64,000 bases of DNA from Escherichia coli (GTDB lineage: Bacteria; Pseudomonadota; Gammaproteobacteria; Enterobacterales; Enterobacteriaceae), in the NCBI RefSeq assembly GCF_003334385.1, contig NZ_QOWN01000020.1. One strand, written 5' to 3'. Made by a program: the position numbers and the translations under genes. This document shows, one piece after another, positions 34,145-37,451 of this stretch (position 1 is its first letter; every line of letters begins with the position of its first letter). The notes under the pieces are model-generated. The model made no database searches and was not told the DNA's origin. It was given only the letters and a program-made list of their open reading frames with translations.

Positions 34145-35530
34145 ATGGCAGATAACAAACCAGAGCTACAGCGTGGGCTGGAAGCTCGACATATCGAACT
34201 CATCGCCCTGGGGGGCACCATTGGCGTCGGCCTGTTTATGGGGGCCGCCAGTACCCTGAAATGGGCCGGGCCATCCGTATTGTTGGCCTATATCATCGCC
34301 GGGCTGTTCGTCTTTTTCATCATGCGTTCAATGGGCGAAATGTTGTTCCTCGAACCGGTTACCGGTTCGTTCGCCGTTTATGCGCATCGTTATATGAGCC
34401 CGTTCTTTGGCTATCTCACCGCCTGGTCTTACTGGTTTATGTGGATGGCGGTGGGGATCTCTGAAATCACCGCCATTGGCGTTTATGTCCAGTTCTGGTT
34501 CCCGGAGATGGCGCAGTGGATACCCGCATTGATCGCAGTGGCGCTGGTGGCGTTGGCGAATCTGGCGGCGGTGCGGTTGTACGGCGAAATCGAGTTCTGG
34601 TTCGCGATGATCAAAGTCACCACGATTATCGTGATGATTGTCATTGGCCTGGGCGTGATTTTCTTTGGCTTTGGCAATGGCGGGCAGTCGATTGGTTTTA
34701 GCAATCTCACAGAGCATGGCGGTTTCTTTGCGGGTGGCTGGAAAGGGTTCCTGACCGCTCTGTGTATTGTGGTGGCGTCCTACCAGGGCGTGGAGCTGAT
34801 TGGCATTACTGCCGGTGAAGCGAAGAATCCGCAGGTGACGCTGCGCAGTGCCGTAGGCAAGGTGCTGTGGCGGATCCTGATTTTCTACGTAGGCGCGATT
34901 TTCGTTATCGTCACCATCTTCCCGTGGAATGAAATAGGCAGCAACGGCAGCCCGTTCGTACTGACTTTTGCCAAAATCGGTATTACCGCAGCGGCGGGCA
35001 TTATCAACTTTGTGGTGCTGACGGCTGCGCTCTCTGGCTGTAACAGCGGCATGTACAGTTGCGGACGTATGCTCTACGCACTGGCGAAAAACCGTCAGTT
35101 ACCGGCGGCAATGGCGAAAGTTTCCCGTCACGGCGTACCGGTTGCGGGTGTGGCAGTATCTATTGCTATTCTGCTAATTGGCTCATGCCTGAACTACATC
35201 ATTCCCAATCCGCAGCGTGTGTTTGTCTACGTCTACAGTGCCAGCGTGCTTCCGGGGATGGTGCCATGGTTTGTGATATTGATAAGCCAGCTGCGTTTTC
35301 GGCGTGCACATAAAGCGGCGATTGCCAGCCATCCGTTCCGCTCAATCCTGTTCCCGTGGGCCAATTACGTAACAATGGCATTCCTGATTTGCGTTTTGAT
35401 CGGCATGTACTTTAATGAAGATACGCGTATGTCGCTGTTTGTTGGCATCATCTTTATGCTGGCGGTGACGGCGATTTATAAAGTTTTTGGCCTTAATCGC
35501 CACGGGAAAGCGCATAAACTGGAGGAATAA
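34145..35530 (+). CDS. yifK: Amino acid permease (APC family)
   Basis: 461-aa ORF with 12 predicted TM segments. Confidence 0.9.
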
Positions 35531-35632
35531 GCAGCAAAACGCACAAACCGTAACCAAACGCGCAATTTATTTAAAAAGGGACTAGACAGAGGGGTGGGAA
35601 GTCCGTATTATCCACCCCCGCAACGGCGCTAA

Positions 35633-35709
<77 letters not shown>

Positions 35710-35766
35710 TTTAGTCCCGGCGCTTGAGCTGCGGTGGTAGTAATACCGCGTAACAAGATTTGTAGT

Positions 35767-35843
35767 GGTGGCTATAGCTCAGTTGGTAGAGCCCTGGATT
35801 GTGATTCCAGTTGTCGTGGGTTCGAATCCCATTAGCCACCCCA
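35767..35843 (+). tRNA. hisR: tRNA-His (anticodon GUG), with extra 5' G
   Basis: GGTGGCTATAGCTCAGTTGG...GCCACCCCA, anticodon loop ATTGTGATT. Confidence 0.95.
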
Positions 35844-35863
35844 TTATTAGAAGTTGTGACAAT

Positions 35864-35950
35864 GCGAAGGTGGCGGAATTGGTAGACGCGCTAGCTTCAG
35901 GTGTTAGTGTCCTTACGGACGTGGGGGTTCAAGTCCCCCCCCTCGCACCA
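35864..35950 (+). tRNA. leuT: tRNA-Leu (anticodon CAG), long variable arm
   Basis: GCGAAGGTGGCGGAATTGG...CCCTCGCACCA, 87 nt. Confidence 0.95.
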
Positions 35951-35992
35951 CGACTTTAAAGAATTGAACTAAAAATTCAAAAAGCAGTATTT

Positions 35993-36069
35993 CGGCGAGT
36001 AGCGCAGCTTGGTAGCGCAACTGGTTTGGGACCAGTGGGTCGGAGGTTCGAATCCTCTCTCGCCGACCA
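35993..36069 (+). tRNA. proM: tRNA-Pro (anticodon UGG)
   Basis: CGGCGAGTAGCGCAGCTTGG...TCGCCGACCA, anticodon loop TTTGGGA. Confidence 0.95.
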
Positions 36070-36074
36070 ATTTT

Positions 36075-36100
36075 GAACCCCGCTTCGGCGGGGTTTTTTG
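36075..36100 (+). terminator. Terminator of the four-tRNA operon
   Basis: GAACCCCGC-TTCG-GCGGGGTT hairpin followed by TTTTTG. Confidence 0.8.
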
Positions 36101-36215
36101 TTTTCTGTGCATTTCGTCACCCTCCCTTCGCAATAAACGCCCGTAATAACTCATTGCCCCACGGTATGATTTCGCCCTTAACGTATTGAAGGATGACTTC
36201 AGGCAAGGAGTGACC

Positions 36216-37451
36216 ATGCTGCAACAGGTTCCAACGCGTGCTTTTCATGTGATGGCGAAACCGAGTGGTTCCGATTGTAATCTGAACTGTGACTACTGTT
36301 TTTATCTCGAAAAACAATCCCTTTACCGCGAAAAGCCAGTCACGCATATGGACGATGACACGCTGGAAGCGTATGTCCGTCACTATATCGCTGCCAGCGA
36401 ACCGCAAAACGAAGTGGCTTTTACCTGGCAGGGCGGCGAACCAACGCTACTCGGGCTGGAGTTTTACCGCCGTGCCGTAGCGCTACAGGCGAAATATGGT
36501 GCTGGCAGGAAGATAAGTAACAGCTTCCAGACTAACGGCGTGCTGCTGGATGACGAATGGTGCGCGTTTCTCGCGGAGCATCATTTTCTTGTTGGTTTAT
36601 CGCTGGATGGCCCGCCTGAGATCCACAATCAATATCGCGTGACTAAAGGTGGCAGACCCACGCATAAGCTGGTGATGCGTGCCCTGACGTTCCTGCAAAA
36701 ACATCATGTCGACTATAACGTGCTGGTCTGCGTTAATCGCACCAGCGCGCAGCAACCGTTGCAGGTATATGATTTTTTGTGCGATGCGGGAGTGGAATTC
36801 ATCCAGTTTATTCCGGTGGTCGAGCGCCTGGCTGATGAAACGGCTGCCCGCGAAGGACTGAAATTGCATGCGCCTGGTGATATTCAGGGTGAGCTAACGG
36901 AATGGTCTGTGCGCCCCGATGAATTTGGTGAATTTCTGGTGGCGATTTTTGACCACTGGATCAAACGCGACGTCGGCAAGATTTTCGTGATGAATATCGA
37001 ATGGGCGTTTGCCAATTTTGTCGGTGCGCCGGGTGCGGTTTGCCATCATCAGCCAACCTGTGGGCGCTCGGTGATTGTTGAGCACAATGGCGACGTTTAC
37101 GCCTGCGATCACTATGTTTATCCGCAATATCGGCTGGGGAATATGCACCAGCAAACAATTGCAGAAATGATCGATTCCCCGCAACAGCAGGTGTTTGGTG
37201 AAGATAAATTTAAGCAGTTACCGGCGCAGTGTCGTAGTTGTAACGTGTTAAAAGCGTGCTGGGGAGGCTGCCCGAAACACCGCTTTATGCTCGATGCCAG
37301 CGGCAAGCCTGGGCTGAATTATTTATGTGCCGGGTATCAGCGTTATTTTCGCCATCTGCCGCCGTATCTTAAAGCAATGTCTGATTTGCTGGCGCATGGC
37401 CGCCCGGCCAGCGACATTATGCATGCGCATTTGCTGGTGGTGAGTAAGTAA
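36216..37451 (+). CDS. aslB: Anaerobic sulfatase-maturating enzyme homologue (radical SAM)
   Basis: ORF track begins 36186; trimmed to ATG 36216 (MLQQVPTRAFHV); CxxxCxxC motif CNLNCDYC. Confidence 0.9.
   Translation: MLQQVPTRAFHVMAKPSGSDCNLNCDYCFYLEKQSLYREKPVTHMDDDTLEAYVRHYIAASEPQNEVAFTWQGGEPTLLGLEFYRRAVALQAKYGAGRKISNSFQTNGVLLDDEWCAFLAEHHFLVGLSLDGPPEIHNQYRVTKGGRPTHKLVMRALTFLQKHHVDYNVLVCVNRTSAQQPLQVYDFLCDAGVEFIQFIPVVERLADETAAREGLKLHAPGDIQGELTEWSVRPDEFGEFLVAIFDHWIKRDVGKIFVMNIEWAFANFVGAPGAVCHHQPTCGRSVIVEHNGDVYACDHYVYPQYRLGNMHQQTIAEMIDSPQQQVFGEDKFKQLPAQCRSCNVLKACWGGCPKHRFMLDASGKPGLNYLCAGYQRYFRHLPPYLKAMSDLLAHGRPASDIMHAHLLVVSK

Follow-up and report, generated by a model that had tools for sequence, protein, structure and literature searches.

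[quoted passage not shown]

Within a stretch of 64,000 nucleotides of Escherichia coli DNA (contig NZ_QOWN01000020.1, called the window in what follows), four tRNA genes lie in a row on the + strand, each of them called by both ARAGORN and Rfam: argX, tRNA-Arg(CCG), at 35633..35709; hisR, tRNA-His(GUG) and the sole tRNA-His gene, at 35768..35843; leuT, tRNA-Leu(CAG), at 35864..35950; and proM, tRNA-Pro(UGG), at 35993..36069. Their names are taken from the annotation of K-12 MG1655, in which the order reads thrP (formerly yifK), argX, hisR, leuT, proM, aslB, and they bear out the operon that a preliminary description of the window had placed downstream of a promoter. Between the thrP stop (35530) and the first tRNA there are 102 nt, and the promoter is found in this gap. 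Deletion of the transcription unit was not possible, the unit being essential, and the tRNA-Pro encoded by proM is itself essential (PMC11480407); its polycistronic precursor is visible on northern blots (PMC2190699).

The locus could be compared directly with MG1655 (NC_000913.3; window coordinates equal MG1655 coordinates minus 3,946,742). Although the segment 35400-36250 as a whole differs from MG1655 at some bases, its promoter part is free of differences, with 35560-35640 identical to MG1655 3982302-3982382. Used as a query, the 851 bp of 35400-36250 were matched in every one of 5,426 complete genomes of E. coli, and the 106-bp promoter region (35535-35640) was found at an identity of at least 99% in 5,407 of the 5,426 records, at a median of one copy. 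In one E. coli genome this 106-bp region has as many as 19 matching places, and one match is plasmid-borne; such cases could be amplifications, assembly artefacts or mobile copies. At the very start of the window (170-330) lie a tRNA-Asp(GUC) and a tRNA-Trp(CCA), which fit the distal end of rrnC (gltU-aspT-trpT; PMC11480407), so that the window would span from rrnC to past aslA. Two groups of candidates were set aside: Rfam hits to rsmX, PrrF, SpF41, STnc180 and anti-hemB, which score far under the gathering thresholds, overlap proM and the terminator and are ascribed to chance, and short open reading frames on tRNA and promoter DNA (e.g. 35582-35710 on the minus strand, 42 aa).

The operon closes with an intrinsic terminator (36075..36104, + strand), identified by folding and by comparison between species. 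Its hairpin, GAACCCCGC-TTCG-GCGGGGTTT (36075-36096), has a 9-bp stem with six G-C pairs and a TTCG loop and is followed by TTTTTTGTTTT; the folding energy is -16.6 kcal/mol (z = -3.7 relative to shuffles), and hairpin and T-run together form the sole terminator-like site within 34500-37000. A hairpin of -10 kcal/mol or lower with a T-run follows proM in 64 of the 69 distinct orthologous downstream sequences, with differing stems, confirming the terminator previously given at 36075..36100.

The promoter itself is built from four contiguous elements on the + strand, assigned from the sequence and from an alignment of 71 orthologous sequences: a -35 hexamer TAGACA (35583..35588, four of six bases matching TTGACA); a 17-bp spacer GAGGGGTGGGAAGTCCG (35589..35605), variable at its centre and conserved at its 3' end (AAnTCCG); a -10 hexamer TATTAT (35606..35611, five of six matching TATAAT), whose second base is the A and whose sixth the T that sigma-70 recognition calls for; and a discriminator CCACCCC (35612..35618), six of whose seven bases are G or C and which is pyrimidine-rich on the non-template strand. 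The spacing lies within the 17±1 bp of sigma-70 promoters, at exactly 17 bp in the window and in all 71 orthologues. All elements of the TAGACA-17 bp-TATTAT promoter described earlier were thus found at 35583..35611, and the G+C-rich discriminator said to follow directly is present as CCACCCCCG (35612-35620); we restrict the discriminator proper to the 7-bp CCACCCC, which is C-rich and not of the GCGCCNCC type. Counted from CCACCCCCG, the promoter elements (TAGACA, spacer, TATTAT, CCACCCCCG) are placed 21 nt upstream of tRNA-Arg(CCG), with the twelve bases CAACGGCGCTAA separating CCACCCCCG from the start of the tRNA at 35633.

The same promoter is already in the literature as pArgX (older name, argT promoter; in Salmonella, hisR promoter). 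The window shares with it both sequence (identical over 35560-35640) and context (flanked by thrP and aslB), and Lyzen et al (2016) cloned it with primers that align to 35335-35369 and 35748-35772 and differ only at their engineered SmaI and HindIII sites. The comparison with the mapped argX promoter that the preliminary description had suggested therefore comes out in its favor, with the published start, a C, falling 8-10 nt past TATTAT. Transcription has been reported to begin with C, the two initiating nucleotides being given as 'CG' and three as 'CGA' (Lyzen et al, 2016, PMC5137449); these nucleotides fit CGCAACGG (CGCAA...) read from 35619, so that the start is most likely C35619 (MG1655 3982361), from which C and G would yield CGC, and the further addition of A an 11-mer stalling before U35630. 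The -265..+135 numbering of the 400-bp SmaI-HindIII insert in the same paper agrees exactly with the cut sites only if +1 is C35621, and this second position is possible (start site, 35619..35621, + strand); the two readings of PMC5137449 make the start either the 8th (35619) or the 10th (35621) base past the -10 hexamer. A T7 template of GGG+AACGGCGC (Kime et al, 2014, PMC3985628) is compatible with both. With +1 at 35619, the discriminator comprises the 7 bp CCACCCC and the leader 14 nt, CGCAACGGCGCTAA (35619..35632, + strand), the initial transcribed sequence, which RNase P removes by cutting at 35632/35633.

We traced the promoter through related bacteria by a pattern scan of species-representative genomes (argX 3' end, gap, hisR 5' end), which returned 80 loci from Enterobacterales, Tolumonas and Gallibacterium, with none from Salmonella; 76 had usable upstream sequence, giving 71 distinct sequences from Enterobacterales and Tolumonas. 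The order Arg-His-Leu-Pro is kept in 18/18 loci scanned, the Tolumonas locus, which ends inside tRNA-Leu, showing it as far as that gene. In Erwinia psidii (L008, 5838-6058) a second tRNA-Pro(UGG) directly follows proM, making five tRNAs rather than four.

Across the 71 sequences the -35 element is TAGACA (51) or TGGACA (20), with five of six positions invariant, and the -10 element is always TAnTAT, where the third base alone is free, being G in 33 sequences, C in 18, A in 13 and T in 7. The columns at the spacer centre (35590-35598) are only 30-72% conserved, those at 35599-35600 and 35603-35605 85-100%. The divergence of the spacer centre indicates that neutral positions have had time to change, and hence that the invariant positions are under selection. 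The discriminator occurs in 18 variants, all of them C-rich, 7 bp long in 63 of the 71, with a mean G+C content of 0.79 and 13% purines, and only C35613 (the second base past the -10 hexamer) and C35618 are invariant; the sequence varies while the composition is kept, a pattern expected from selection on base composition or melting energy and not on a specific motif. Directly downstream, the leader columns 35619-35629 are 92-100% conserved in Enterobacterales and differ in Tolumonas. The essential nature of the unit fits both the near-perfect conservation of the promoter in 5,426 genomes and this clear footprint in the Enterobacterales.

Upstream of the -35 hexamer, the alignment delineates two further conserved regions. 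The first is an A/T-rich tract (35565..35581, + strand) containing AAAAAGGGA (35573-35581), which resembles a proximal UP subsite, occupies -46..-38 if +1 is 35619 and ends 1 nt before the -35 hexamer. The A+T content of 35560-81 is 0.68 against 0.48 window-wide, and columns 35574-35577 are 96-99% A. The proximal subsite consensus, reportedly given by Estrem (1999) as AAAAAARNR, has 8 specified positions; of the 70 distinct orthologues, 67 match it at 7-8 of these in the corresponding 9 nt. The full UP consensus, by contrast, has no match within three mismatches at the argX promoter, and its matches in the window occur at chance level. The second region is a block GCACAAACCGTAACCAAAC (35541..35559, + strand; TGCACAAAGCGTAAnCAAAC as consensus in relatives), lying at about -78 to -60, whose columns are invariant or nearly so and beyond which the sequence has fully diverged between genera. 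From its position and conservation this block is probably part of the upstream activating sequence (UAS) that Hsu (1991), so far as quoted in PMC5137449, assigned to the promoter. Short A-runs recur about one helical turn apart (35536-39, 35545-47, 35556-58 and 35573-77). A Fis site or an intrinsic bend in the block are possibilities that we mention as speculation and do not claim.

The promoter has been under study since at least 1991 (Hsu et al, 1991, cited in PMC5137449; Maitra et al, 2005; Lyzen et al, 2016, PMC5137449). RNA polymerase holoenzyme binds and protects pArgX and initiates there, as reported from gel shifts, DNase I footprints and transcription in vitro, and a minimal fragment spanning -40..+5 is transcribed and regulated likewise (PMC5137449). 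Alone, ppGpp inhibits pArgX by ~30-50%, and DksA alone stimulates it ~2.5-fold through better polymerase binding; the two together bring transcription down to ~10% in vitro, and in vivo the down-regulation by ppGpp needs DksA (PMC5137449). Stringent control of the promoter had been demonstrated earlier (Rowley, 1993, in the form in which PMC5137449 cites it). The assignment to the stringently controlled stable-RNA promoters, made in the preliminary description, is thus upheld both in vivo, by inhibition in the stringent response, and in vitro, by inhibition with ppGpp and DksA; the ppGpp/DksA-dependent in vitro transcription that it proposed as a check had been published in 2016, with DksA and ppGpp together inhibiting (PMC5137449). 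Taking these data together with the identity of the DNA, we are in very little doubt that a sigma-70 promoter, TAGACA-17-TATTAT, drives argX-hisR-leuT-proM under stringent control, and that it is the published pArgX.

We then considered how far the argX promoter resembles its better known counterparts. For this we took, besides rrnB, 18 further tRNA operons of MG1655 and represented each upstream region by its best consensus match and not by a mapped start. On this consensus scan, near-consensus hexamers and G+C-rich discriminators precede most of the 19 operons, roughly half of the spacers are 16 bp and roughly half of the discriminators begin GCGC (GCGCCNCC type), examples being GCGCCACC at rrnB P1, GCGCCCCG at tyrT, metT and proK, and GCGCCTCC at glyV and leuQ. 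Beside these other E. coli tRNA promoters (tyrT, metT, leuQPV, glyVXY, proK and others) argX is a variant, with a discriminator beginning CC and a 17-bp spacer.

Also to be weighed is the relationship with rrnB P1, the archetypal rRNA promoter, of which argX might be a kinetic copy, forming a short-lived open complex that ppGpp and DksA shorten further. Several features agree with this: an A/T tract upstream of the -35 hexamer, a G+C-rich discriminator (CCACCCC, 6/7 G+C), the invariant C35613 at the second base past the -10 hexamer, a start unusually far from that hexamer (8-10 nt) and inhibition by ppGpp with DksA. A suboptimal 16-bp spacer is a defining property of rrn P1 promoters, whereas the argX spacer is 17 bp in 71/71 sequences. 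The elements themselves also differ, rrnB P1 being TTGTCA-16-TATAAT with discriminator GCGCCACC and an A start, and argX TAGACA-17-TATTAT with CCACCCC (beginning CC and not of the GCGCC type) and a C start. The rrnB P1 class has been defined by an A+T-rich UP element at -60 to -40, a G+C-rich discriminator and a start 9 nt past the -10 hexamer (Shin et al, 2021, PMC7822876), and stringent control in vivo (PMC5137449) is what a member would show. The kinetics, however, already contradict the idea in vitro: rrnB P1 open complexes are short-lived and decay in minutes, whereas those at pArgX are reported to be very stable, with only a small fraction decaying over 3 h of heparin challenge in like conditions, and DksA on its own activates (PMC5137449). 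ppGpp and DksA lower this stability only moderately, and the authors of that study proposed that inhibition proceeds via inactive dead-end complexes and not via open-complex decay (PMC5137449). Long-lived open complexes and activation by DksA alone mark pArgX as a stringent promoter that is no kinetic copy of rrnB P1, and we regard full kinetic equivalence as doubtful. Lyzen et al (PMC5137449) instead liken pArgX to phage lambda pR, both for the stability of its open complexes and for the way in which DksA activates it by improving polymerase binding. With ppGpp added, DksA goes on activating lambda pR, whereas the two factors together strongly inhibit pArgX (PMC5137449), and the two promoters have neither related sequence nor a related biological role.

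Another parallel is the hisR promoter of Salmonella enterica (Bossi and co-workers), the orthologue that serves this four-tRNA operon in that species. Its G+C-rich discriminator determines how sensitive it is to supercoiling: according to Forquet et al (2021, PMC8422995), this sensitivity is lost step by step when one or five of the discriminator's C/G positions are changed to A/T; the five-fold mutant moves the start 3 nt upstream (Figueroa-Bossi, 1998, as relayed in PMC8422995), and the title of that 1998 paper, quoted in the same place, states that supercoiling sensitivity parallels responsiveness to stringent control.

Conservation around the start might also have its cause in the RNA, with the C-rich stretch and the leader kept for leader structure or for processing by RNase P or RNase E. 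The leader segment CGCAACGGCGC is nearly invariant, its GGCGC is complementary to the GCGCC of the tRNA 5' acceptor strand, and without the segment upstream of argX, RNase E cuts site E1 ~8-fold less; the same work shows that this segment aids cleavage in the argX-hisR spacer (PMC3985628). More precisely, GGCGC (35625-29) is complementary both to the tRNA-Arg 5' acceptor GCGCC (35633-37) and to a GCGCC near the 3' end, and when the leader and tRNA are folded together in silico it is paired with either of these two. Against such an account of the whole region stand the position of the discriminator (35612-18), which lies upstream of the start and is untranscribed, and its varying sequence with retained composition, which points to a constraint on DNA melting and not to an RNA motif. 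An RNA-level explanation is thereby limited to 35619-35632, where it is compatible with our main explanation; as an alternative to it, we judge it improbable.

The invariance of the start-proximal sequence invites another, tentative thought, that the first ten transcribed bases CGCAACGGCG (35619-28) by themselves form an element that functions at the start site; we hold this to be unlikely but worth recording, for they are near-invariant in Enterobacterales beside a freely varying discriminator, and a related sequence, AACGNCG, recurs in four operons. This motif, defined post hoc after inspection of the data, begins 10-12 nt past the best -10 hexamer in 4 of the 19 sampled tRNA operons (promoters again by consensus scan), as AACGGCG in argX (within 35619-35629), AACGCCG in metT (locus L082), AACGACG in glyV (L084) and AACGGCG in glyW (L090). 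Leader lengths in these operons run from 21 to 73 nt, and the background density of the motif in the window is 0.00049 per nt. A near-match, CGCAGCGACG, occurs at serV (L095), and CCCGCAACG is common to argX and metT. If the proposal holds, CGCAACGGCG could set the choice of start site or promoter escape, could favor the ppGpp/DksA-dependent dead-end complexes reported for pArgX, and would give stable-RNA promoters a means of control distinct from the discriminator.

The hexamers, taken by themselves, carry little weight. A 10/12 match is not rare (two sites in a local scan, against 2.0±1.2 expected from shuffles); on both strands of the 64-kb window there are five sites of at least 10/12 against 8.3±3.2 in first-order Markov simulations, and one such site whose next eight bases include at least seven G or C, against 0.5 expected. 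We therefore rejected the hexamer match as significant in itself, its counts being at chance level. Three promoter-like sites in the window even outscore the argX promoter at 11/12: TTGGCA-16-TATAAT (51194, +), TGGACA-16-TATAAT (13646, -) and TTGACA-17-GATAAT (13274, -). What raises the promoter call above chance is its position in the 102-nt gap, the phylogenetic footprint and the published biochemistry on identical DNA.

Some transcription does enter the operon from thrP/yifK, since a search between the thrP stop and the tRNA promoter (35531-35582) found no terminator. In Salmonella the same arrangement holds: no terminator lies on the way from yifK to the tRNA operon, and a 2.0-kb yifK-tRNA read-through RNA is processed to a 1.4-kb mRNA (PMC3879156), so that processing at the tRNA operon probably generates the thrP mRNA's 3' end. 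According to Yang et al (2014, PMC3879156), a strong promoter just upstream of argX supplies most of the Salmonella operon's transcription. We consider it extremely improbable that the hexamers match by chance and that most transcription of the operon begins at another place, such as the promoter of thrP (yifK) 1.5 kb upstream: consensus matches this good are indeed as frequent in the window as chance predicts, and the open path from the thrP stop (35530) to argX and the 2.0-kb Salmonella RNA speak for read-through, but yifK mRNA is undetectable from its own wild-type promoter (PMC3879156), RNA polymerase footprints and transcribes at the site in vitro, even on the -40..+5 fragment (PMC5137449), and across Enterobacterales neither the hexamers nor their 17-bp spacing vary, loci with another gene upstream included.

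The sequence of events at this stringently controlled sigma-70 promoter may then be pictured as follows. Sigma-70 would recognize TAGACA and TATTAT over the fixed 17-bp spacer, with the A-tract just upstream of the -35 hexamer offering a proximal UP-like contact to the alpha C-terminal domain; as judged from their sequence and placement, A-tract and upstream block together would raise basal strength. Melting would pass from the -10 hexamer through the C-rich CCACCCC to a start at C35619 (±2 nt). By analogy with the Salmonella orthologue, the discriminator would couple initiation to negative supercoiling and to ppGpp/DksA; only its G+C-richness, and not its exact sequence, is conserved. The primary transcript, ~480 nt long, ends at the terminator (36075-36104), and RNase E and RNase P then cut it into the four tRNAs.

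The promoter and its response to ppGpp and DksA were already known, and it is the comparative footprint and the start-proximal motif that are mildly new. The long-lived open complexes reported for pArgX conflict with the textbook link from a G+C-rich discriminator to an unstable complex; on the published kinetics, this promoter is a counter-example, bearing the sequence hallmarks of stringent control without the usual unstable open complex. The comparative data presented here (a discriminator whose composition is kept and whose sequence is not, next to an invariant initial transcribed sequence) could guide mutagenesis to resolve this conflict at a promoter on which E. coli relies for its sole tRNA-His gene and for a tRNA-Pro gene that is essential.
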